Source of the DNA: an uncultured bacterium
GTDB taxonomy: Bacteria > Schekmanbacteria > GWA2-38-11 > J061
DNA length: 64,000 nt
Reading direction: 5' to 3'
NCBI GenBank assembly: GCA_964549305.1
Contig: CAZJVM010000001.1
Coordinates: forward strand, 32,001 to 96,000
Both the position numbers and the translations under genes were made by a program. Below are positions 5,703 to 38,716 of this stretch, one piece after another (position 1 is the stretch's first letter; the number at the start of each line of letters is the position of its first letter). Under the pieces are notes generated by a model, which made no database searches, was not told where the DNA came from, and saw only the letters and a list, made by a program, of their open reading frames with translations.

Positions 5703-6429
5703 TTACAAATTAAAGATACAATATGACGGGACCGTTTATGCCGGATGGCAGATTCAACCCCATGAAATGACTATCGAAAAAGTGATTGCCGATGTCATTG
5801 AAGAAATATTTCACGAGAAGATAAAGCTCATAGGGGCATCCCGAACCGATGCAGGAGTCCATTCAAGGGGGCAAACCGCGAATTTTCACATTTCAAAAGA
5901 GATTGATTTATTTACACTGAAGAAAGGTGTCAACGCGCTTCTTCCCGATGACATATCAATACAAAGCGCGGAAAGGGTTGATGATAATTTTCACGCACGA
6001 TTCAGCTCGAAAGGTAAGATATATAAATACTATATTTGGAACAGAGATTATAAAACTCCTTTTTATTCACTATACTCGTGGCATATTTTAAAGCGCCTCG
6101 ATATGGAGGCGATGAAAGCGGCATCTCGTTTTTTAAAAGGTGAGAAAGATTTTTCGTCTTTCAAGGCGTCAGGTTGCGATGCTAAATCTCCCGTAAGGCG
6201 GATAGATTCTTTTGACATCAGGAGTGAAGATGGTTTTGTCGTGTGTACCATAGAAGGAAGCGGTTTTTTAAAACAGATGGTAAGAAATATCGTGGGTACA
6301 TTGGTTGAAATCGGTACAGGAAGGATGACTCCCGTGGATATGGTGCACATTCTCGAAGTCCGCGACAGAAAAGCAGCAGGTCCCACTGCCCCTGGACGGG
6401 GACTGGTGCTTGTCAAGGTAAAGTATTAG
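5695..6429 (+). CDS. truA: tRNA pseudouridine(38-40) synthase
   Basis: YDGTVYAGWQ, ASRTDAGVH, FHARFS, FLKQMVRNIVG, TAPGRGLVL. Confidence 0.96.
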   Translation: MPNYKLKIQYDGTVYAGWQIQPHEMTIEKVIADVIEEIFHEKIKLIGASRTDAGVHSRGQTANFHISKEIDLFTLKKGVNALLPDDISIQSAERVDDNFHARFSSKGKIYKYYIWNRDYKTPFYSLYSWHILKRLDMEAMKAASRFLKGEKDFSSFKASGCDAKSPVRRIDSFDIRSEDGFVVCTIEGSGFLKQMVRNIVGTLVEIGTGRMTPVDMVHILEVRDRKAAGPTAPGRGLVLVKVKY

Positions 6430-6558
6430 TATGCACTGTCTGTAAAAGGAAAAACTTTTTCCGAAGGGAAATGCACATATAAAACGGTATGGAAATACAA
6501 TTCCAAAAAATATTATGGACAACGCCTGTCTTCTTTAGTATATATGAAAACTTGACTA

Positions 6559-6630
6559 AGGCACGTAGCTCAGCGGGAGAGCGCTGCCCTGACGCGGCAG
6601 AGGTCAGGGGTTCGAAACCCCTCGTGCCTA
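6559..6630 (+). tRNA. tRNA-Val(GAC), CCA not encoded
   Basis: Acceptor AGGCACG/CGTGCCT, D arm GCTC/GAGC, anticodon stem CTGCC/GGCAG with loop CT-GAC-GC, T arm AGGGG-TTCGAAA-CCCCT, discriminator A. Confidence 0.95.
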
Positions 6631-6684
6631 AGATGCGAGTTATTTCGGGGGGACTATGGGAGATATTAAAACGGTAGTTAATGT

Positions 6685-8607
6685 ATGAGCGAAATTGAAA
6701 TTTCTTTTGTTGACGGTGAGACACTGAAAGTTCCCTCAGGCAAGACTGTAGAAGAAATCCTTTCACAGAATAAATCCCCACTAAGGAAAAATGCCGTTGC
6801 CTGCAAGTTGGACGGTAATCTTTATGATTTGTCTTGCGTGCCCGGGAACGGCTCTGTCATAGATGTTATAGTTTCTGAGTCGGAAGAGGGAACCGAGATT
6901 TTGCGTCATAGCACATCGCACATTATGGCGCAGGCGGTGACAGAATTATTTCCCGGAACGAAAGTAGCTATAGGTCCGGCAATCGATAAAGGCTTTTACT
7001 ATGATTTTGAACGCGAGGAAAGTTTTACGCCTGAAGACCTCAAAAAAATAGAAAAGAGGATGAAAAAAATAGTCTCCTCAAACTCTTCCTTTTCAAGAAA
7101 GGTTATATCGAGGGAGGACGCTATCAGACTTTTCAGCGATAAGGGTGAAAAATATAAAGTGGAACTTCTCGAGGCATTGGAGGATGAAGAGGTTACAATG
7201 TATGAGCAGGGCACTTTTACCGACCTTTGCAGGGGACCTCATATCCCCAATACATCCAAAGTAAGGCACTTCAAGCTTCTCAATACGGCAGGTGCCTATT
7301 GGAGAGGTGATGAAAAGAACCCTATGCTTCAAAGAATTTACGGCACTGTATTCCCTACAAAAGAAGGTCTTGAGGGATACATCACATTTCTCGAGGAAGC
7401 AAAGAAGCGCGATCACAGGAAATTGGGAAAAGACCTTGAACTTTTCACAATCAGCGACGAAATCGGGGCGGGCCTGGTAATATATCTTCCAAAGGGTGCG
7501 CTTTTGAGAACTCTTCTCGAGGATTTTGAAAAAAAGGAACATCTCAGGAGAGGATATGACATTGTAATCGGTCCGCAAATTCTTAAAAAAGACGTTTGGG
7601 TAAAATCCGGACATTTCGACAACTACCGGGAAATGATGTATTTTACAAAAGTGGATGAGCAGGAATACGGTATCAAGCCGATGAACTGCATTTCACATAT
7701 GTTTGTATACAAGTCAAAGCTGAGAAGCTACAGAGATTTGCCAATGCGTCTTTTTGAGCTTGGCACTGTGCATCGGCACGAACGCTCGGGGGTCCTTCAC
7801 GGTCTTATGCGCGTAAGGGGATTTACACAGGATGACGCCCATATACTTTGCATGCCGGAACAGCTTCAGGATGAAATACTATCCATAATTGATTTTGTGG
7901 ATTATGTAATGAATATATTCGGTTTTGAATATGAAATAGAATTGAGTACGAGGCCTGAAAAATCAATAGGTTCAGACGAAGCATGGGATAGGGCTACACA
8001 GGCTCTCGAAGGCGCGTTAAAATCAAGAAATCTTCCCTATGATATCAACGAGGGCGACGGTGCCTTTTACGGGCCTAAAATAGACATAAAACTGAAGGAT
8101 GCCATAGGAAGGTCCTGGCAGTGCGCGACTATACAATGTGATTTTACCCTTCCCGAGCGATTCGACCTCACTTATGTTGACAGCGATGGTCAGCAAAAAC
8201 GTCCGGCGATGCTTCACAGGGTGATTTTGGGAGCAATGGAGAGGTTTATGGGCGTTCTCATAGAACATTTTGCTGGAGCTTTTCCCACATGGCTTTCACC
8301 GGTACAGGTAATAGTAATGACTATTACCGAGGCAGTTGACGGTTATGCCCGAAAAATTGAAGAATCTCTTAAATCTCAGGGAATAAGATGTAAGCTCGAT
8401 GTAAGAAACGAAAAAATATCTTATAAAATCAGGGAAGCTCAGCTTGCAAAGGTGCCTTATATGCTGATTATAGGCAAAAAGGAGATGGGAGATAATTTAG
8501 TTTCACTGAGATTGAGGGGAGGAAGTACGCCCGGTTCGATGACCGTTGAAGACTTTCTCAAAAAAATAAATGACGATATAAACAATAAAATGTTAAAACC
8601 CCTATGA
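6685..8607 (+). CDS. thrS: Threonyl-tRNA synthetase
   Basis: TGS domain, [34 protein letters not shown]. Confidence 0.98.
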
Positions 8608-8620
8608 GGAGGTGAATGTT

Positions 8621-9175
8621 ATAAAAAAGTTTGATCGCCGAATTCCAAAAAGAAAACAGTCAAATATAAATGAAATGATAACAGCTAAGGAAGTCAGGCT
8701 TATTTCTTCAACTGGCGAACAGGTGGGAGTTATTTCCACAGAAGAAGCGAGAAAAATGGCTGAAGAGGACGGACTTGACCTTGTTGAAGTTTCTTCCAAT
8801 TCCAGTCCTCCCGTATGCAAAATTATCGATTACGGGAAACATTCCTTTCAGCAGAAAAAAAAGCAACAGGAAGCGAAAAAGAAACAGAAAGTAATTCAAG
8901 TCAAAGAAATCAAGTTTAAGTTAAAAACGGAAAAGCATGATATCGATTTTAAGGAAAAACATCTTGAAAGATTCTTAAATGACGGAAATAAAGCAAAAGT
9001 GAGACTAATGCTCTACGGGAGGGAAATGACATTGGTTGGCAGAGCGATTGACATGCTTAACCGCATTGCGCAAGACCTCAGTGAAATAGCCGTTGTTGAC
9101 CAACCGCCCAAGCAGGAAGGAAGAAATGTCATAATGATTCTTGCTCCCTTAAGCGCGTCCAAGAAAAAGAGCTGA
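8621..9175 (+). CDS. infC: Translation initiation factor IF-3, probable ATA start (ORF track uses GTG 8612)
   Basis: [41 protein letters not shown] at 8607-8614 overlaps the GTG and is properly spaced to in-frame ATA 8621. Confidence 0.95.
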
Positions 9176-9239
9176 ATTTGTTCTTGACTTTTTCACTGAA
9201 ATACATCATAAAGCCAATTTTTATTGGAGAAGAATTACA

Positions 9240-30131: not shown

Positions 30132-30557
30132 AATAAAATAGATTATGAAATAAAAATAAAAACCGGTTTCTGAAACTGTAAAAGCATATATCAAAAAGAA
30201 TGAAGTTTATGGCAACAGAGTATAATGACTGAAAGTGCAAGTTGTCAATAATCATAAAAATAAAAACCGGGCAAACAATTTGTAGCTTATAAAAGCATCA
30301 GAGGGTGTCAGGAAGAAAGCATATTCTATATCAATCATTTGTTGCTCACAGCGACGATAAATGGTTTGTAAATACAGCAGGTTAGCTATCATTGCTATGT
30401 CCTTTAAATGATTGTTTGCTATGCTATCTAATTGATTTATCAATAAATAAATTGTTTTTTCGCGGTAAAAAAAATATTTTATTGGATATGAGATTAAAGG
30501 TTTTTAAGGAAAGTGGCGACAATATATGGTATAAATGCTGCTAATGGGGGAGGTGGC

Positions 30558-31004
30558 ATGAAAAAAATATCGCTTAAAAAATCTGAAGACGCGTTTACAC
30601 TTGTAGAAATTCTTGTTGCCATAGTAATCCTTTCTGTAGGACTTCTCTCAATAGCAAGTTTGGTTACAACTGTTATCAGGGGTAACGCAAAGAGCAGGCG
30701 AATGACTACGGCAATAACTCTTGCGCAAACGAAAATAGAAGAGTTGAAAAATCTGGATTATGACGATAGCAAACTCGAAGATTCAAATACGGGCAACAAT
30801 TCAAGCCTTACAAGCACATCATCCACTGACCACAGCGAAGCGGATATAGACGCGGAAGGGGGAACAGGGGGAATTTATACGAGAATATGGAATGTTGCCG
30901 ATGACACTCCTTCAACGAATATGAAAACTATTACGGTTATCATAAAGTGGGAAGAAAAGGGCAAGGAAAGAAAGACTGCGTTTACAACTATAATATCGGA
31001 ATGA
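30558..31004 (+). CDS. Type IV minor pilin, PilV-like
   Basis: Class III signal peptide A|FTLVEILVAIVILSVGLL, AITLAQTKIEELK; SD GGAGG before ATG 30558. Confidence 0.85.
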   Translation: MKKISLKKSEDAFTLVEILVAIVILSVGLLSIASLVTTVIRGNAKSRRMTTAITLAQTKIEELKNLDYDDSKLEDSNTGNNSSLTSTSSTDHSEADIDAEGGTGGIYTRIWNVADDTPSTNMKTITVIIKWEEKGKERKTAFTTIISE

Positions 31005-31013
31005 GGATGAAAA

Positions 31014-31919
31014 GTGCGCGTGAAAAATAACAGGAATGGATTTACGCTTATAGAGTTGATGGTGTCGATACTTCTCGCATCTATACTTATGGTTACATTT
31101 TATACTCTTCTTACCAGTCAGCAGAGAACATACAACAGTCAGGATTTGATTGTTGAAATGCAGCAAAATGTGAGGACGGCAATGGATACTTTGACGAGGG
31201 AATTCAGGTCAATCGGATACGGAGTGCCTACTGCCGACACCCCTTCGGAAATTGCCGTTATAAGCAGCGCGACGGAAAACACCATAACCTTTCTCGTTGA
31301 CCTTGATAATGTGAAGGCGACACTTACTGCCGACTACACGGCAGGAAATACTACTCTTTCCGTTGACACGGTGTCGGAGACATCTTCCGACAGTTATTAT
31401 GGCAATTTTTCCGCAGGTGATACAATATATATAACTGACGGAAGCAAGTGGGAAGCCACTGACGTGTCATCTACTTCCCAGGGGAGTTTGGGTATCGGGG
31501 CTTTAACCAATGATTTTTCCCAGGGGTCGGTGCTTCACGTAATCAACACAATTACGTATGCCCAGAATCCATCCGACCACAAACATTCGACTGATGCGCC
31601 AACCATTAAATTGACGCGGTCTGTTGACGGAAGCACGGCACAACCGGTAGTCGATGACATTGATTATCTTGAATTCAAATACTATGATGATTCGGACAGT
31701 CAGGTCGGTTCAGCGACTCCATACAAGAGTGTAAGTTTATCTTCCGGTGATGTAGGCGACGTAAGGAAAATAAAAGTTCTTTTTATCGCGCGAACATCGA
31801 GAGAAGATCCAAGCTACTCGAGTTCCGGGGTCTATAACTGCGGCGACAAATACAGCGACCAATATCACAGATTAACACTGGAATCGGAAATAAAATTAAG
31901 AAATGCAGGATTGGAATGA
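31014..31919 (+). CDS. Type IV minor pilin, PilW-like
   Basis: G|FTLIELMV, MQQNVRTAMDTLTREFRSIGYG, C-terminal IKLRN. Confidence 0.85.
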   Translation: MRVKNNRNGFTLIELMVSILLASILMVTFYTLLTSQQRTYNSQDLIVEMQQNVRTAMDTLTREFRSIGYGVPTADTPSEIAVISSATENTITFLVDLDNVKATLTADYTAGNTTLSVDTVSETSSDSYYGNFSAGDTIYITDGSKWEATDVSSTSQGSLGIGALTNDFSQGSVLHVINTITYAQNPSDHKHSTDAPTIKLTRSVDGSTAQPVVDDIDYLEFKYYDDSDSQVGSATPYKSVSLSSGDVGDVRKIKVLFIARTSREDPSYSSSGVYNCGDKYSDQYHRLTLESEIKLRNAGLE

Positions 31920-31920
31920 T

Positions 31921-32982
31921 ATGAAAAATAACAAAATGTTAAGCAATGAGTCGGGATTTGTCCTTGCACTTGCAATGTTTCTTCTTGCTATTCTCACTGT
32001 GATCGGTCTCGGCGCGATTTTGATTACATCGACAGAGCTTAAGATATCGGGGAATCTCAGAACTGCTACCGATGCCCTGTATGTGGCAGAGGGAGGTATG
32101 GAAATTACTGAAGGAAAATTGAAGGCAAACGCAGTGAGCAATTTTGCAGGAACAAGCGGGACAACAAGCAATACGCAGATTTATGTCGTAGGAAAATCAC
32201 CTAAAAACACCATTAAAAATCCTTTAAACTGGGTTGACACAAGCTGGTATATAGATTCGGATATGACCACGCCCCTGTCCGAGGGCAATGCGGAAACCGT
32301 GACTGCTCTTTATAACAAATATACTATTGGTTCCGGGGAAGCCAATATTACACTGCCAAGACCTCAGTGGTTGTGGGTAAATCCCACGATTGTGGCGTTC
32401 AGAAACGTCAGGTCCACATTCTCGGGAACAAATGCCAAAAAAGTGGAAGCGGATATTGAAATAAGATTTGAAAATAATCTCCTTTCCTTTCAGGTGTTCA
32501 AAGACCCTTCTGACGGTGTATCCGATGTTGACAATATTTCCAACAACAATGTTATAATAGGAGGTACAGGTTATGATTTTGGAATCGATCCTGCATTAAG
32601 CAAGATTACGGGAATTTGCACGAACGATAACAGTACGAAAGCTATTATAATTTATAGGGATGGGGACAACAATTTAGCGACTTCAGACTGGACAATAGTC
32701 GGAGAACCGGAGATTAACACGACTAACAGTACATTTTGCCTCAGCAATGCGAGAGGTTACAGATATACAGCTTTGGGTGGTGCCGGGTCAAAAGAACCGG
32801 TAGCGGTTTTAAGCGCAAGCGAATATATTCCCGATACTACGGGCGCGCCTGTTTTGTCAATCAGTAACGGGGAAATTTACAAGGTTGAACTTGTCGATAT
32901 ATCTATGCTTTCACGAAGTGCCGGAAATCCGGCGGGTTCATCGGCAGGAAGCTGGGTGTCGAATACTTATAATCAATGGTAA
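31921..32982 (+). CDS. Type IV minor pilin, PilX-like
   Basis: NESG|FVLALAM lacking Glu5, TELKISGN, ALYVAEGG (PilX N-terminal pattern). Confidence 0.82.
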   Translation: MKNNKMLSNESGFVLALAMFLLAILTVIGLGAILITSTELKISGNLRTATDALYVAEGGMEITEGKLKANAVSNFAGTSGTTSNTQIYVVGKSPKNTIKNPLNWVDTSWYIDSDMTTPLSEGNAETVTALYNKYTIGSGEANITLPRPQWLWVNPTIVAFRNVRSTFSGTNAKKVEADIEIRFENNLLSFQVFKDPSDGVSDVDNISNNNVIIGGTGYDFGIDPALSKITGICTNDNSTKAIIIYRDGDNNLATSDWTIVGEPEINTTNSTFCLSNARGYRYTALGGAGSKEPVAVLSASEYIPDTTGAPVLSISNGEIYKVELVDISMLSRSAGNPAGSSAGSWVSNTYNQW

Positions 32983-33006
32983 ACAAAAATATTAAAGGAG
33001 AATAAA

Positions 33007-33204
33007 ATGTTTAAAAATCTGATTTGGGTTTTAATGACTTTTCTGGCATTAGCGGTTGTAATAACCTTTTCAACAGTGACAACGCGTGCCGATTCTGATA
33101 CAAATTCAGCGAGTAATATGAATGCTCCGGTAAACGGCGCGCAGGGGACAGGCACCAATGCCGAGCCGAACTCGACAATAAAAAACTGGCACGAAGTAAA
33201 TTAA
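33007..33204 (+). CDS. Secreted microprotein 1 with C-terminal TIKNWHEV motif
   Basis: SD AAGGAG; Sec-type signal peptide (…TRA|D); paralogous to the next ORF. Confidence 0.8.
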   Translation: MFKNLIWVLMTFLALAVVITFSTVTTRADSDTNSASNMNAPVNGAQGTGTNAEPNSTIKNWHEVN

Positions 33205-33247
33205 TGATGTATTTGTATAAATAAGATATATAAGAACGGAGGTTAAA

Positions 33248-33430
33248 ATGGCAAAAATAGTTAAAATGGTTTTGATATTACTCGTGTCAGGATTGATGAG
33301 CGCAACATTTACATTTGCAGTTACCACAAATTCAGACAGCAACTCAAACGCGAATGTTAATGGAGGAGGCGGACAGACTCAGCCATTTACGCCTTCTACT
33401 ACAATAAAGAACTGGCACGAAGTCAAATAA
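33248..33430 (+). CDS. Secreted microprotein 2 with C-terminal TIKNWHEV motif
   Basis: SD GGAGG; signal peptide (…TFA|V); last 30 nt 27/30 identical to microprotein 1. Confidence 0.8.
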   Translation: MAKIVKMVLILLVSGLMSATFTFAVTTNSDSNSNANVNGGGGQTQPFTPSTTIKNWHEVK

Positions 33431-33533
33431 TTCAAATATTCCTGCATACATATAAGTAAATTTTACGTTGCGGACTGTCACTATAGTTGATTATCCCAAC
33501 CGTTCACTTATTGTTCAGGCAGAGAGTCTAATA

Positions 33534-34454
33534 TTGAAGAAATTCCTTTTTCTTTTATTTCTTGTCATAGTCACGGCATTTTCAGGGTGTCACCGCATAA
33601 GCGATAATGAGCTTAGTGACGTGGAGTCCGCAATAGAGTCAAAAGATTACAATCGTGCTTTGACAACTCTTTCACAACTCGCGGAAAAATATAAGGGAGA
33701 TGCAATTGTCCATTATCTTTCGGGATACTGCTTTTTAAAAAAAGAAGACAACGAAGCGGCACTCAAAGCATTCAAAAGGACTTTTGATATAAGAAAAAAT
33801 TACTCCGCAATGGTAGGTGATGTTGATGTGGCGAATTTTCTCGCCGGAAACAGTTTGTCGGCGGAAAACCCTTTCTTCAAGGGAGCGATGAGAGAACTCG
33901 ATACGATTATAAGCAAAAACAGCGGGGGCGAAACGGAAGAAAGAATTCGCTATCACAAGGCATCGCTTCTTCTTTTAAAAGACAAATATGATAAAGCAAT
34001 CGATGAACTTGAAAAGATAATTGAAAATAAAGTAGTGTCTCCTTATGATGCAAAAGCATATTTGAAAATTGGAGAAATCACCGCTCAATATTTACAAAAT
34101 GAAGATAAGGGACTTAGTATTATCAGCGCGCTTATTGACAAATATCCCAATGACAGGGAAACTTTGGCAGAGTCAATGATTTGGATTGCAGAATATAAGA
34201 TTAAACGCGCGAATATGCTTAAAAAGAGGATCGAATCCCTCGAAGATTTTATCGAGTCATGGAAAGGGATAAAAGGGTTTCAGGAGGATATCAAAGAGGC
34301 AGTTGTGCAGATAGGGTCCGATAGTAAAAGCAGAAACAAATGTATTGCTGAAGCAAAGGAATATATTGATAAAATCAACAGGGAATATGCGGGAAGCAAT
34401 TTTGCCGAAAGGACAAAAATGCTTTTAAGTGGCCTAAATGCAGTTAACCGGTAA
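33534..34454 (+). CDS. TPR-repeat lipoprotein (ORF track start 33468)
   Basis: TTG-start KKFLFLLFLVIVTAFSG|C lipobox; TPR-like helices (HYLSGYCFL..ALKAFKR, KAYLKIG). Confidence 0.72.
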   Translation: MKKFLFLLFLVIVTAFSGCHRISDNELSDVESAIESKDYNRALTTLSQLAEKYKGDAIVHYLSGYCFLKKEDNEAALKAFKRTFDIRKNYSAMVGDVDVANFLAGNSLSAENPFFKGAMRELDTIISKNSGGETEERIRYHKASLLLLKDKYDKAIDELEKIIENKVVSPYDAKAYLKIGEITAQYLQNEDKGLSIISALIDKYPNDRETLAESMIWIAEYKIKRANMLKKRIESLEDFIESWKGIKGFQEDIKEAVVQIGSDSKSRNKCIAEAKEYIDKINREYAGSNFAERTKMLLSGLNAVNR

Positions 34455-35955
34455 AGGGTTCACTGTGAAAGATGCAAATCTGAAAACAAAAATCACAAAA
34501 TACCTCCTTGTGGCAATGACACTTCTTTTTCTTTTCTTTCTCCTGTTCAACATTCAGTATTCATATGAGGGGATAGTAGGTTACGACGGTTATTACCACA
34601 TTAAAATAGCAAAAAATATGGGAGAGAAAGGAGTTCTATCTCCCGATGCGTCGCTGATGTATCTTCCGGGAGGTGAGCAATTTGTTGACCATCACTACCT
34701 CTATCACATACTGCTTATACCATTCACCTTTTCCAATCTCATTGACGGTGCCAAGAATTCGGCTATATTTTTTGATATGCTTCTGCTGATGGTTTTATCG
34801 TATATTTTGATAAAGCTTGATGTTAAAAATCCATATCTCTGGATTCTTGTACTCTTCTCTTTGTCTGAAACGTTTATCTTCAGGTTGTCTCTTCCGCGCG
34901 CAACTATACCTTCGCTAATAATCCTCATTTTAGCCTGGTATTTTATGATAAAGGAAAAATATATTCCTCTGGCAGGATTATCCTTACTTTTCCCGAGTTT
35001 CTACGGAGGATATACGGCGATTTTTATACCTCTCTCTGCTGTCATATGTTCTGTATATATAAGGAATAAACGATTTAATTACAAAGTGGTTATTGCTGTT
35101 ATATCAGGTGTTACATTAGGTAATATAATTAATCCTTTTTTTCCCGACAACCTGAAATTTATCTATCTTCAGACTACTTCTGCGGGACTTTTCAGAGTGG
35201 CAAGAGGTGGTTCGGAGTGGATGTCATTTGCGCCGGAAGAATTTATAAGGACGCAGTTTGCTTTTATCTTTCTTTTTTTGGTTACGCTTTATATTGCGGC
35301 AATTGACGACAAAAAGATGAATAAGGAGGCATTGTCCCTTTTCTTTATCTCCCTTCCTTTGATTGCAATCAGTTTTTTCTGGCGAAGATTTATAGAATTG
35401 TCGGTGCCCTTTTCATTGCTCTTTTCGGCAACGGTTTTCAGAGATTGCACTTTGGATAATATTACGGGATTTAGTAAGGGGGGTAAAAAAATATCGTCTG
35501 CTCTCGTGATATTCCTCACGGTCTTTTTCAGCGCGGGGAGTTATTATACGGCAAAATCGGCAACCGAGGAGATTAAATCGGATTTTCGTTCTCCCGGAAG
35601 GTACAGTCAGGGAGCAAAATGGATTTACGAAAATGCTCCGGGAATACCTGTGTATCTTACCGATTGGGATGACTATCCGGAACTCTATTTTTATAATTCC
35701 TTTAATAGGTATCTTATAGGTCTTGACCCCGCGTTTCTCTATATTTATGATAAAGAAATGTATAAAATATGGATAGAAATTAATGCCGGAAAATATAAGG
35801 GCGATTTAAAGAAGGCGTTTACTGAAGTATTTAAAACCCCGCTAATATTTACTGACAATACTCACGGTGATTTTGTAAGATATAGTTCCGGATATGATTG
35901 GATTAAATTGCGATACAGCGATTCCTATTGTAAAATATACAGCATTATTCCCTGA
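34438..35955 (+). CDS. Polytopic GT-C-fold glycosyltransferase, STT3-like motifs
   Basis: About 11 TMs, DGYYH after TM1, soluble C-terminal domain with TDWDDYP. Confidence 0.55.
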   Translation: MQLTGKGFTVKDANLKTKITKYLLVAMTLLFLFFLLFNIQYSYEGIVGYDGYYHIKIAKNMGEKGVLSPDASLMYLPGGEQFVDHHYLYHILLIPFTFSNLIDGAKNSAIFFDMLLLMVLSYILIKLDVKNPYLWILVLFSLSETFIFRLSLPRATIPSLIILILAWYFMIKEKYIPLAGLSLLFPSFYGGYTAIFIPLSAVICSVYIRNKRFNYKVVIAVISGVTLGNIINPFFPDNLKFIYLQTTSAGLFRVARGGSEWMSFAPEEFIRTQFAFIFLFLVTLYIAAIDDKKMNKEALSLFFISLPLIAISFFWRRFIELSVPFSLLFSATVFRDCTLDNITGFSKGGKKISSALVIFLTVFFSAGSYYTAKSATEEIKSDFRSPGRYSQGAKWIYENAPGIPVYLTDWDDYPELYFYNSFNRYLIGLDPAFLYIYDKEMYKIWIEINAGKYKGDLKKAFTEVFKTPLIFTDNTHGDFVRYSSGYDWIKLRYSDSYCKIYSIIP

Positions 35956-35979: not shown

Positions 35980-36720
35980 ATGAGAAAGTGTCTTCTTTTA
36001 ATTCTTGTGTTTGTATTTATAAGCACTCTTCCCGCATTTGCCATTTATAAATGGACCGATTCAAATGGTGTCGTGCATTTTACGGATTATCCTCCCAAAA
36101 ACAGCGACAAAGAATACGAAGACGTGGATTTTAACAAAAACCTTTCTGATATGAACGATTCCTTCGGAGACGGACTCATAGGCAAAGGATGGATTCGTTT
36201 TAATATTGACAACTCCGATATTCTCGATGAATCAGGGGATTCGCTAACGATTAACGCTCCCGGGGACAGCGACATATGGTATGACAGGTTTGATGCTCCG
36301 GTTCTTTTCAAAAAAATCAAGAAGGCAGACAAGAATTTTACGGTGGAAGTTAAGCTTCATTTTGAGACAAACGGTTCAGACAAGGGAGGGGTTGTCATCT
36401 GGACTGATAAAAGCGGCAAGGGAGATGTGGTACTTATCTGTAAATCAAAGGATGAGGATATCAATTTCAGAAGAATAATCGGTTCCGATTCGCAGAAGGG
36501 GACCGAACCTACCTACGACAAGGAAAACGTGATATTCAGGTTAAGCAGGGAAGAGGATAGAATCAAAGGGTCATACAGCGAGGACGGAGGCGACTGGACT
36601 GACCTTGGCGAAGTCGACTTCCCGATGGAAGGTCCTCTCAATATAGGTATTTTCGGTTGTTCGTGGAAATCCAATCCAGCGAAGATAATATTCGATTACT
36701 TTTCAGTGAGTGAGCAATAG
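35980..36720 (+). CDS. Secreted protein: DUF4124 plus concanavalin-like (DUF1349-type) domain
   Basis: Signal peptide AFA|IYKWTDSNGVVHFTDYPP; SDIW..FDAP, YSEDGGDWT, IGIFGCS, FDYF. Confidence 0.7.
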   Translation: MRKCLLLILVFVFISTLPAFAIYKWTDSNGVVHFTDYPPKNSDKEYEDVDFNKNLSDMNDSFGDGLIGKGWIRFNIDNSDILDESGDSLTINAPGDSDIWYDRFDAPVLFKKIKKADKNFTVEVKLHFETNGSDKGGVVIWTDKSGKGDVVLICKSKDEDINFRRIIGSDSQKGTEPTYDKENVIFRLSREEDRIKGSYSEDGGDWTDLGEVDFPMEGPLNIGIFGCSWKSNPAKIIFDYFSVSEQ

Positions 36721-36727
36721 AAAAGAA

Positions 36728-38716
36728 TCATTGCTCGTTTTGAACCTTTTTCGCAATTACAGCAAAAAATGGTTTTTGACTCTCATTACTTTCATACATA
36801 CCTTCCGCTATATGATATCCTTTTCCGAGGACAACTGTTGTTTTAATATACTTCTTTTTCTTCGATAAACTTTTTGAAATTATTCTGCCGTCAACGGAAA
36901 GAGTGAAATTCCCCCTGGAAAAAATATAGAGGCGATAAGCGCCTTTTTCAGTTGTACGAATAATCGAATTGAACGTTGCCTGAGAAAAATCACCGATGCT
37001 TGCAATTAGCGGGAATATATTATTTCCAGTTTTCTCTTTTTCCGCGAAGGGGTTAAAAGATATTACAGTATTCTTCCAAATATCTTTTTGCTTACCGAAG
37101 AGGATAAAATCATTTTCCGTTGATTTGTCCAGACTTTTATAAATAGACAGAAGAGGGACACCGTTATGATTATTTGAAAAAACCGGTATCATCTGCTCCG
37201 TATAAAATTCCTCTTCTTCCCCAAGGAGACCTTCTCTGTGGTTTATTATAATGTAATCATAATCGTCTTCATCGTAAATCACATCATTTGAAAGAATACC
37301 GTAATCGTAATAGTAATCAAAAAGTATGGTGTTGAATAAAGCCCTGCCTGCTATTTTTTTACTGCGCAGATTATTGTTGATGAATCCGAGGGTATTTTTG
37401 TTAAAGGCGTCACCCCAATATGTTGTTTCCATCCCGATTTTTTTCGCGCCTTTCAAACCTCCCGCGTAAATATTGAAGTATGAAAGCTCGTAAGGGTGAA
37501 TGCCGTAAAGAGATATGGCGGACGAGAGTATAAGGAGGGAGGAAAGTATATAGGCGCCTGCCGCGGATTTCCCGCGAAAGCAGAGCATTTTTATTTTCAT
37601 AAAACCGAATCCCGAAAGAATTGCGAGAAAGGGAAATGCGGGAAGAAAAAGTCTCTCTCCGTCATATGAAGGAGCGATACCCGATGAAACAACAATTAAG
37701 GGGATAAGCGCGTTGATTAGAATAAATATGGCATATTTCTCATTTGAAATGTTTACTGATTTGGCGAAAACTTCTTTCAGGCGATTGAAAAGATTTATTG
37801 CGATTGCAGTAACTGAAATTACAATGAGCAATATATATGGCGCGGGAATGGTAAAGAATGACAATAAAAAAGGATAGTGCCAGGGAAGAGCGTTTGAATT
37901 GAATTTTTTGCCGAGGTAATATGTCCGTACCACAAAGTCTTCTGTGTGAGTTGACATTCCGGAAATAAATTCTGTGAAGTGCGATGTAAAATCCACCCAA
38001 AGCCAGGGATTTGTAAAGTAAAAAACCGCTATTGCCCCCATTGTCCCGAAGGTTAAAATGGAAAATTTTTTTTTGTCGGGAAAAAGAATAAGCCATAAAA
38101 AAATCGCAACCGGAATCAGTGCCGATTGTGCTTTTGTGCAAAAAGAAAGCCCGAGAGAAAGAGCAAAGAGATATTTATAGATTGGCTTTTCGTCACATTT
38201 CAGAAAGAAAAAAACTGTTAAGGTCCACATAAAAGTTACAGGTATGTCGAGAGCGAAGATATGTCCGTGACCGAACATTCGCGGCATAAACAGAAGTCCC
38301 AGTGACGCTGTGAAAGCTGATATATAATCGGTAAATCGAAGTGTAATGAGAAATACAAGGGCGCAGATTATGGAAAACATTATCTCAGGAGAAATTCTCA
38401 GCGCTTTGATTTCACCGGCAATATTTCCGAAAAAAATGAGTGATAAGGCGTGCATCATCCTTCCGAAAGGCGGATGATAATGAAAATGTCCGCCGAAATA
38501 TTTTTCTATGCTCTCTTTACTTCTGAATGTTGTGAAATCCCCCCTGATGATATCCTTTGCCGTCATAGACATCCATTGGGCAAAGGAATGGGCGGCGGAA
38601 TCGTTTATCCACGCTTCATCGCAGGTTATGCCTATATCGCTTGTCGTTGAATAGAGGAGAAGAAAAGCGAATAAGGCAATAAACACAGCGACAAGTATAT
38701 TTTTATTTCTGTTCAA
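36728..38716 (-). CDS. ArnT/PMT-like GT-C glycosyltransferase with C-terminal PA14-like beta domain
   Basis: GITCDE, HPPFGR, multi-TM core, HPYELSYFN...GMETTYWG; tail FTLSVDG..LGKGYHI. Confidence 0.7.
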   Translation of the reverse strand: MNRNKNILVAVFIALFAFLLLYSTTSDIGITCDEAWINDSAAHSFAQWMSMTAKDIIRGDFTTFRSKESIEKYFGGHFHYHPPFGRMMHALSLIFFGNIAGEIKALRISPEIMFSIICALVFLITLRFTDYISAFTASLGLLFMPRMFGHGHIFALDIPVTFMWTLTVFFFLKCDEKPIYKYLFALSLGLSFCTKAQSALIPVAIFLWLILFPDKKKFSILTFGTMGAIAVFYFTNPWLWVDFTSHFTEFISGMSTHTEDFVVRTYYLGKKFNSNALPWHYPFLLSFFTIPAPYILLIVISVTAIAINLFNRLKEVFAKSVNISNEKYAIFILINALIPLIVVSSGIAPSYDGERLFLPAFPFLAILSGFGFMKIKMLCFRGKSAAGAYILSSLLILSSAISLYGIHPYELSYFNIYAGGLKGAKKIGMETTYWGDAFNKNTLGFINNNLRSKKIAGRALFNTILFDYYYDYGILSNDVIYDEDDYDYIIINHREGLLGEEEEFYTEQMIPVFSNNHNGVPLLSIYKSLDKSTENDFILFGKQKDIWKNTVISFNPFAEKEKTGNNIFPLIASIGDFSQATFNSIIRTTEKGAYRLYIFSRGNFTLSVDGRIISKSLSKKKKYIKTTVVLGKGYHIAEGMYESNESQKPFFAVIAKKVQNEQ

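Follow-up and report, generated by a model that had tools for sequence, protein, structure and literature searches.

Here, we describe a minor-pilin operon from an uncultured member of the Schekmanbacteria in which two very small genes, termed peptide 1 and peptide 2, directly follow pilX. The operon lies in a 64,000-nt window (positions 32,001 to 96,000 of contig CAZJVM010000001.1, assembly GCA_964549305.1; coordinates below are those of the window unless stated otherwise). On the forward strand, its order is PilV-, PilW-, and PilX-like pilins, the two small open reading frames (ORFs), a tetratricopeptide repeat (TPR) lipoprotein, and a 505-amino-acid (aa) membrane protein. From pilV to the membrane-protein gene, neighboring genes are separated by gaps of 9 to 43 nt or overlap slightly, and no terminator-like site was found between pilX and the 505-aa membrane-protein gene.

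Peptide 1 (65 aa; 33007 to 33204, + strand) and peptide 2 (60 aa; 33248 to 33430, + strand) were delimited as ORFs and by alignment. Inspection of the sequence places a Shine-Dalgarno (SD) element before each: GGAG at 32997 to 33000 (+), 6 nt upstream of the ATG of peptide 1, and GGAGG at 33238 to 33242 (+), 5 nt upstream of that of peptide 2; the same kind of ribosome-binding site precedes all seven peptide copies found in four genomes. Signal peptides, assigned by inspection, comprise a Lys-containing n-region followed by 15 to 20 hydrophobic residues and are predicted to span residues 1 to 28 of peptide 1 (...TRA/DS; mature part of 37 aa, tail ...PNSTIKNWHEVN) and 1 to 24 of peptide 2 (...TFA/VT; mature part of 36 aa, tail ...PFTPSTTIKNWHEVK). 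In all 10 aligned members of the family, Ala occupies position −1 and a small residue position −3, and the mature part has a polar or acidic start. The peptides lack the G/F-x-x-x-E motif of prepilins, and N_methyl (PF07963) matched PilV and PilW and neither peptide. The initial annotation of this locus, which reported 65- and 60-aa ORFs with strong SD elements and Sec-type signals after pilV-pilW-pilX, is thus accurate throughout.

The predicted mature parts are rich in N, S, T, and G. Read at their C-termini, the peptides end PNSTIKNWHEVN (peptide 1) and PSTTIKNWHEVK (peptide 2), that is, ...TIKNWHEV(N/K) in both: they share 45% identity overall, and TIKNWHEV, just before the final residue, is identical. 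This tail is the most conserved region of the family and is invariant, which the S/T-rich part is not; its ending reads W-H-E-V/I in 8 of the 10 members, W-H-E-L in one, and W-H-E followed directly by a stop in another.

Several features of the sequence argue that the two small ORFs are real genes. A C-terminus of the form W[RKH]E[IVLFM] plus 0 to 3 residues occurs in only 3 of 7,644 ORFs (≥50 aa) in the window's genome, and two of these three are the peptides. Pairwise codon differences in the tail core, [IV]KNWHE, amount to 29 synonymous against 6 non-synonymous, all six of them I/V exchanges, and the reading frames are kept across order-level divergence while the spacer DNA varies. The rarity of the tail, its recurrence at the same place in related genomes, and the synonymous nature of its changes together put the peptides beyond chance. 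A frameshift or sequencing artefact of PilX is out, because each peptide has its own SD element, start codon, and signal peptide in four genomes. Also dropped, by inspection, was a precursor of a ribosomally synthesized and post-translationally modified peptide: the N-terminus resembles a signal peptide and not a leader, and no maturase-like gene is seen nearby.

Sequence searches with the peptides return only their own family (2 proteins in a search of 5.8 billion clusters and 3 in one of 1.84 billion representatives), and one of these matches is annotated at NCBI as deriving from a Candidatus Schekmanbacteria metagenome-assembled genome. Neither peptide matches Pfam (E up to 0.1) or NCBIfam, nothing significant appears in PHROGs (best E about 0.05), the best Atlas score is 0.76, and no Rfam family matches the peptide region. 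With a family profile, the peptides were recovered from four of five Schekmanbacteria genomes: as two tandem copies in G000 (the window's genome), G001, and G002, and as one copy in G003, with no peptide gene detected by the profile in G004 (completeness, 70%). Further loci, one with a single copy and one with two copies, come from two metagenome contigs, and it is the peptide 2 type that is retained at single-copy loci. The order pilX–peptide(s)–TPR lipoprotein holds at 6 of 6 loci, bearing out the expected linkage of homologues to pilX, and the 505-aa membrane protein follows the TPR gene at all five loci that reach far enough (those of G000 to G003, and contig locus L087).

The three upstream pilins are the presumptive partners of the peptides. 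The PilV-like minor pilin (PilI/GspI class; 30513 to 31004, +) was assigned by N_methyl (7e-7), TIGR02523 (7.4e-10), and alignment; its prepilin site is ...EDA/FTLVE, with Glu at +5, and the true start of its gene is probably an internal ATG (Met16). The PilW-like minor pilin (PilJ/GspJ class; 31014 to 31919, +) matches N_methyl (2.8e-8) and PF16074 (1.9e-5, at 25.1 bits slightly below the 26-bit cut-off), and its site, ...RNG/FTLIE, keeps Glu at +5. The PilX-like apical minor pilin (PilK/GspK class, 359 aa; 31903 to 32982, +), recognized by PilX_N (6.9e-10) and alignment, has the site ...ESG/FVLAL without Glu at +5; a missing Glu at this position is the criterion of the apical PilK/GspK class (PMC13533445), and the protein thus fits expectation. 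No second PilX_N protein is encoded in the window's genome, where five ATPases are PilB/GspE-like, two are PilT-like, and two secretins are present. The C-terminus of this PilX is ...SWVSNTYNQW, with no terminal W-x-E tail, just as the initial annotation read it.

In type IVa pili, the last ~10 residues of the tip adhesin PilC/PilY1 add a beta-strand that completes a small PilK/PilX sheet, and a groove of PilJ/PilW cradles them; this mechanism, whose strand addition the initial annotation had invoked, is now published (PMC13533445). According to the same study, GspK and CpaL carry this strand in cis, and a fusion of the final 12 residues to PilK or PilX partially replaces the adhesin. A study on Kingella (PMC13711793) describes a conserved Trp in the PilC/PilY1 tail, after which many members have Arg, Glu, and hydrophobic residues. 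The N-W-H-E-V of the peptides fits the motif as given there, and natural PilY1s from three unrelated genomes end ...TLLNWREVF (G044), ...PMSWAEGVTF, and ...PLFWRYLP, so the proposed similarity to PilY1/PilC C-termini stands.

A full-length PilY1 is missing not only from the window, as previously noted, but from everything searched in the phylum: PF05567 (PilY1) has no match in the window's genome (completeness, 100%) or in any of the five Schekmanbacteria genomes, whereas the whole set of 61 genomes searched yields three PilY1s (none of 14 control genomes had a match above the cut-off, and these controls are hence uninformative on sensitivity). With a mature length of 36 to 37 aa, the peptides are too short for the PF05567 beta-propeller; what they do have in common with PilY1 is the W-H-E-hydrophobic C-terminal tail, the position after pilX, and Sec export (predicted, by inspection). 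The peptides are therefore predicted to work like a PilY1 tail yet lie outside the PilY1 family, because they have no propeller. Elsewhere in the window's genome, 19 ORFs of at least 150 aa have W-x-E within their last 12 residues, two of them with signal peptides. One of the two, a 184-aa DUF4124 protein (...DWWRENFF), is a loose candidate. We considered the other, a 159-aa ORF (...KFWEEVI), as another donor and rejected it as a coincidence: it is Met/His-rich and, by eye, sits beside a 1,042-aa CusA-type resistance-nodulation-division pump. The earlier suggestion that the peptides compete with adhesins encoded elsewhere found no support, as the genome showed no convincing tail on any other exported protein.

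The predicted structure of the complex places the tail where the PilY1 precedent would have it. A four-chain job comprising mature PilV (residues 28 to 163), PilW (10 to 301), PilX (19 to 359), and peptide 2 (25 to 60) yielded interaction prediction scores from aligned errors (ipSAE) of 0.77, 0.78, and 0.78 in three runs, compared with 0.00 for the best of three control models, in which either the peptide was exchanged for an unrelated 36-aa chain (two models) or PilX was exchanged (one model). Of 80 solved complexes, 58 reach the score mark in use, as do 2 of 110 mismatched pairs, a calibration only roughly valid for this four-chain job; at least 48% of contacts are common to the three runs. 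The sole part of the peptide within the confident interface is residues 47 to 60 (FTPSTTIKNWHEVK; 33386 to 33427, +), the predicted donor strand. Its predicted acceptor is the edge formed by PilX residues 179 to 190 (KKVEADIEIRFE; 32437 to 32472, +), the last strand of the pilin sheet; in the AlphaFold2 (AF2) monomer, residues 179 to 188 form the last of four sheet strands and are among the better-scored segments (10-residue block means of 82 and 71).

The remaining partners of residues 47 to 60 in the confident interface are the PilX helix 59 to 78 and PilW residues 62 to 73, 96, 99, and 296 to 301. The lowest-error pairs run antiparallel (PilX:peptide 188:50, 187:51, 186:52, 185:53, 183:55/56, and 182:57). 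In the model, peptide Trp56 contacts R65, Y69, R296, and N297 of PilW and M66 and V181 of PilX, and the predicted Trp groove in PilW consists of R65, Y69, G70, R296, and N297. Across 19 aligned PilW sequences (down to 22% identity), G68, which sits beside the contact residues Y69 and G70, and N297 are invariant, and R65 and R296 are nearly so. The modeled geometry, antiparallel on the last PilX strand and against conserved PilW residues, matches the published PilY1 arrangement; for peptide 2, the multimer check proposed in the initial annotation came out as anticipated, with the tail on the PilX sheet edge and the Trp against PilW.

Structures of the type II secretion proteins GspI, GspJ, and GspK have the same topology, with the strand in cis. 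It is nevertheless unlikely, judging from profile comparisons, that the score derives from recall of a homologous solved complex, since the PilX profile has no sequence match among solved chains and the PilW profile matches only the N-terminal pilin helix. A wide structure search with the PilX AF2 model returned only long-helix look-alikes (Z of 6.4 or less) and is uninformative on the fold.

A natural experiment within the phylum points in the same direction. The loci of G003 and of G004, a sister genus, are positional orthologues, as established by the identities of five shared genes (Crp-like, 73%; membrane protein, 78%; fimU, 58%; pilV, 81%; and pilW, 59%). In G004, pilW is followed by two PilX_N-type frames broken by stretches of N that read as X (L029, G004:C135:11000-23972, about 6202 to 9204), the second of which encodes a protein of about 395 aa ending ...SSYKISAWKEVTS (...SAWKEVTS), and no peptide, TPR, or GT-C (glycosyltransferase C) gene comes after it. 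As far as the sequences tell, the tail at this one locus is thus either in cis on a PilX-type protein (G004) or on a separate microprotein (G003), and this cis/trans swap shows that the strand moves easily between polypeptides. By eye, the second G004 PilX_N protein looks beta-solenoid-like.

We surveyed PilX_N proteins more widely, finding them in 49 of 301 genomes at 61 places, of which 53 were analyzed (the survey omits the four peptide-type loci and four extra copies on fetched contigs, three on G237:C53 and one on G298:C78). W-x-E occurs within the last 12 residues of 13 of the 53 proteins versus 19 of 2,563 background ORFs (≥150 aa). Such cis tails read ...SWREVNIH, ...SWKEL, ...SWREIN, and ...DWREF, and the second PilX of G003 ends ...ISWREVQ; several short PilX genes are instead followed by proteins of 1,000 to 1,700 aa ending ...MWREISQQ, ...WWRELK, or ...YWREPF. 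None of the 53 surveyed PilX loci has a tail-only peptide, and the strict tail is found on none of the 3,632 small ORFs (30 to 150 aa) at surveyed PilX_N loci. A blastp comparison of PilX with the 53 survey proteins aligns no more than the N-terminal helix and gives no sequence evidence on the origin of the peptides, for which a split cis-tail PilX and a shrunken PilY1 are both candidates. Two contig loci from a search for PilX relatives, matching in the N-terminal helix only, were not used.

Some of the surveyed genomes carry tandem arrays of PilX_N genes (L033, with four on contig G237:C53, and L076, G132:C38). The W-x-E tail is present on only some of the tandem copies (e.g., ...SSWREEF and ...ISWEEEPAVWE), which suggests that these arrays are interchangeable apical pilins.

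Taken together, we think it fairly probable that the peptides are Sec-exported, stand-alone donors of the C-terminal beta-strand (Cbeta) that complete the PilV-PilW-PilX tip complex without an adhesin; the model, the motif, and the synteny provide computational support for the original proposal that they are minimal PilY1 surrogates supplying only the docking strand. Sec export and cleavage of the signal peptide would release a mature peptide of about 36 aa into the periplasm, where its last ~14 residues (FTPSTTIKNWHEVK in peptide 2) are predicted to line up antiparallel to the last PilX sheet strand (179 to 190), with the Trp and its neighbors seated in the groove of conserved PilW residues R65, Y69, G70, R296, and N297. 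Completion of the PilV-PilW-PilX initiation and tip complex would then license fiber assembly and cap the tip without an adhesin domain, leaving the polar, N/S/T/G-rich N-terminal ~22 residues to project from the apex, and the two paralogues could serve as alternative caps for the genome's single PilX.

A number of points weigh against this reading. The stand-alone tail peptide is seen in Schekmanbacteria alone, so the family is restricted to one uncultured phylum, and it has His at the position that is usually Arg in the tail motif. The four-chain job used shallow custom alignments (4, 19, 7, and 9 rows) and, having four chains, is unlike the calibration set; ipSAE is the model's own confidence; the peptide partner has a predicted local distance difference test score (pLDDT) of 46; and, of the two peptides, the complex covers peptide 2. 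PilX alone folds poorly in AF2 (pLDDT of 50, with residues 190 to 359 unresolved), and its own conserved C-terminus (...W-x-S-x5-W) may fill the same site in cis. Finally, the hydrophobic stretches of the peptides are, by inspection, long enough (18 to 22 residues) to act as uncleaved membrane anchors.

The genes downstream of the peptides suggest further possibilities. The TPR lipoprotein (lipobox ...FSGC; 33468 to 34454, +) matches TPR families, including a YbgF-like match at 1e-13, and type_IV_pilW (TIGR02521) at only 0.0027; from its sequence, it is a possible pilotin or assembly factor. The 505-aa multi-pass membrane protein (34438 to 35955, +), characterized with Atlas and Foldseek, has no Pfam match, and the named Atlas clusters closest to it are PMT_2/STT3 (0.95), which is a lead only. 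Its AF2 model is weak (pLDDT of 55, predicted template modeling score of 0.58), and Foldseek matches of this model in the PDB are almost all GT-C enzymes (STT3, DPY19, ALG12, ArnT, AglB, PglB, and Emb/Aft; best E of 2e-3, template modeling score of about 0.44). The protein is probably a GT-C-fold glycosyltransferase, as judged from the model and the Atlas lead. Its first loop region contains an invariant D-H-H. TfpW of Pseudomonas is a GT-C enzyme that acts on pilins, and the 505-aa enzyme may glycosylate pilins or the S/T/N-rich parts of the peptides, which we offer as a lead and not as a finding. One can extend the strand-donor reading to a diffusible peptide that serves as an assembly license, with piliation or tip type switched through the paralogues and the projecting whisker glycosylated by the GT-C-like enzyme, such that a glycopeptide tip would replace the adhesin; we regard this extension as doubtful.

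The same neighbors furnish the case for an alternative in which the peptides belong to the pilus without donating a strand, acting as substrates or carriers of the GT-C-like enzyme or as filament cargo or regulators, with the docking a false positive. The genes for the TPR lipoprotein and the GT-C-like protein accompany those for the peptides (at six and five loci, respectively), and neither comes after the PilX with a cis tail in G004; the N-terminal portions of the mature peptides are rich in S, T, and N; and predictors can put a free strand on any open sheet edge. Yet it is the tail and not the S/T-rich part that is invariant in the family, and this tail matches the motif of PilY1 and of cis-tail PilX proteins; unrelated 36-aa partners and the PilX-replaced control all scored 0.00, and glycosylation and docking are in any case mutually compatible. 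We consider a non-donor role unlikely.

Cleavage of the signal peptide separates strand donation as proposed above from a variant in which docking is the same but the hydrophobic segment is retained, making each peptide an N-in/C-out, single-pass "mini-pilin" without a head, whose tethered tail would hold or time PilV, PilW, and PilX at the inner membrane or be extracted along with the complex. Besides the length of the hydrophobic stretches, the resulting topology equals that of the pilin alpha1N helix, and the complex model, which used the mature part only, is silent on cleavage. Against retention stand Ala at −1, a small residue at −3, and the polar or acidic mature start in 10 of 10 members, which are typical of signal peptidase I, together with the absence of a prepilin peptidase motif, and we rate this variant as quite unlikely.

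Decidedly improbable is that the peptides are unrelated secreted products (a signal, a bacteriocin-like peptide, or envelope filler) that merely happen to lie within the operon. They are small, low-complexity sequences with no Pfam or NCBIfam family and nothing significant in PHROGs or Atlas, as such products might be, but their linkage to pilX is strict (6/6 loci), gene gaps measure just 24 to 43 nt with no terminator-like site, and one would have to set aside the match to the tail motif, the modeled complex, and the swap to a cis tail in G004. That the ORFs are untranslated and conserved as a non-coding element is scarcely credible even for an uncultured host lineage, given the SD before 7 of 7 copies, the 29 synonymous versus 6 conservative differences in the tail core, the frames kept over order-level divergence while spacers vary, and the absence of an Rfam match.

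As strand donors, the peptides invite comparison with several known systems. They resemble the PilC/PilY1 tip adhesins of the type IVa pili of Neisseria, Kingella, Acinetobacter, Pseudomonas, and Myxococcus in following pilX, in their predicted Sec export, in a C-terminus of Trp, basic, Glu, and hydrophobic residues, and in the predicted antiparallel addition to the last PilX/PilK strand at the interface with PilW/PilJ; they differ in lacking the PF05567 beta-propeller and the N-terminal adhesin domain, in having His for the usual Arg, and in size (about 36 aa when mature versus roughly 1,000 to 3,500 aa). They would be the natural counterpart of the engineered PilK-Cbeta and PilX-Cbeta fusions and the CpaL "delta-middle" construct, in which a strand without the adhesin body supports the tip complex (Ellison et al. 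2026, PMC13533445), except that the engineered strands are in cis on a minor pilin, whereas the peptides are separate products, in trans, each with its own signal peptide.

In PilY1-less systems such as GspK/XcpX of type II secretion, cyanobacterial PilX, and Thermus ComZ, the protein's own terminal strand completes the sheet (with, in ComZ and cyanobacterial PilX, a beta-solenoid inserted before the last strand), and the second PilX_N proteins of G004 (...SAWKEVTS) and G003 (...ISWREVQ) provide parallels within the phylum. In these cis-strand PilK homologues, the donor is on the same polypeptide, whereas the window's PilX has no such motif and the next two genes do. MshQ of the mannose-sensitive hemagglutinin (MSHA) pilus is likewise not a PilY1, is encoded beside minor pilins, and is proposed to dock by a C-terminal strand; it is, however, a large, cargo-bearing protein, and the peptides carry no cargo.

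Two natural solutions to completing the tip complex have been listed so far: the apical pilin carries the strand itself (in cis), or a large adhesin provides it (in trans). The peptides would constitute a third, a strand in trans with nothing attached. In the portions of the literature available, we found no stand-alone strand-donor peptide, the described donors being cis strands or large trans proteins; the tail-only peptides are new, and the underlying docking mechanism was already described in 2026. If confirmed, the peptides would imply that the licensing and adhesion functions of PilY1 are separable in nature, and they would offer a minimal system of two to four components (a synthesizable peptide and soluble PilX, with PilV and PilW optional) for studying the structure and kinetics of strand addition. 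They also suggest that small ORFs after pilX may have been overlooked in other systems "lacking PilY1."

Several further genes in and around these loci are of note. The operon in the window closes with a DUF4124/DUF1349 protein (35980 to 36720), and a 184-aa Sec-type DUF4124 protein elsewhere in the same genome (L085, contig C100, 2322 to 2876) ends ...PYDWWRENFF, loosely like a docking tail. Convergent to the operon, on the minus strand at 36728 to 38716, lies a 662-aa multi-pass membrane protein that by eye resembles ArnT/PMT-type glycosyltransferases. In G003, pilV and pilW are separated by an insertion, a small gene whose 121-aa product resembles a GIY-YIG nuclease by eye (L011, G003:C8:41000-53000, 8021 to 8386). 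Outside the window, the genome encodes an orphan FimU/GspH-like pilin (204 aa; C5:54444-55058), which stands alone after a chemotaxis cluster and next to a methyltransferase-looking gene (ogt-like, by eye). A gene like this ogt-like neighbor closes the fimU-pilVWX operon in G004, and fimU heads the peptide-type operon in G003; with fimU an orphan in G000 and in the operon in G003 and G004, the G000 lineage seems to have split fimU off from pilVWX.

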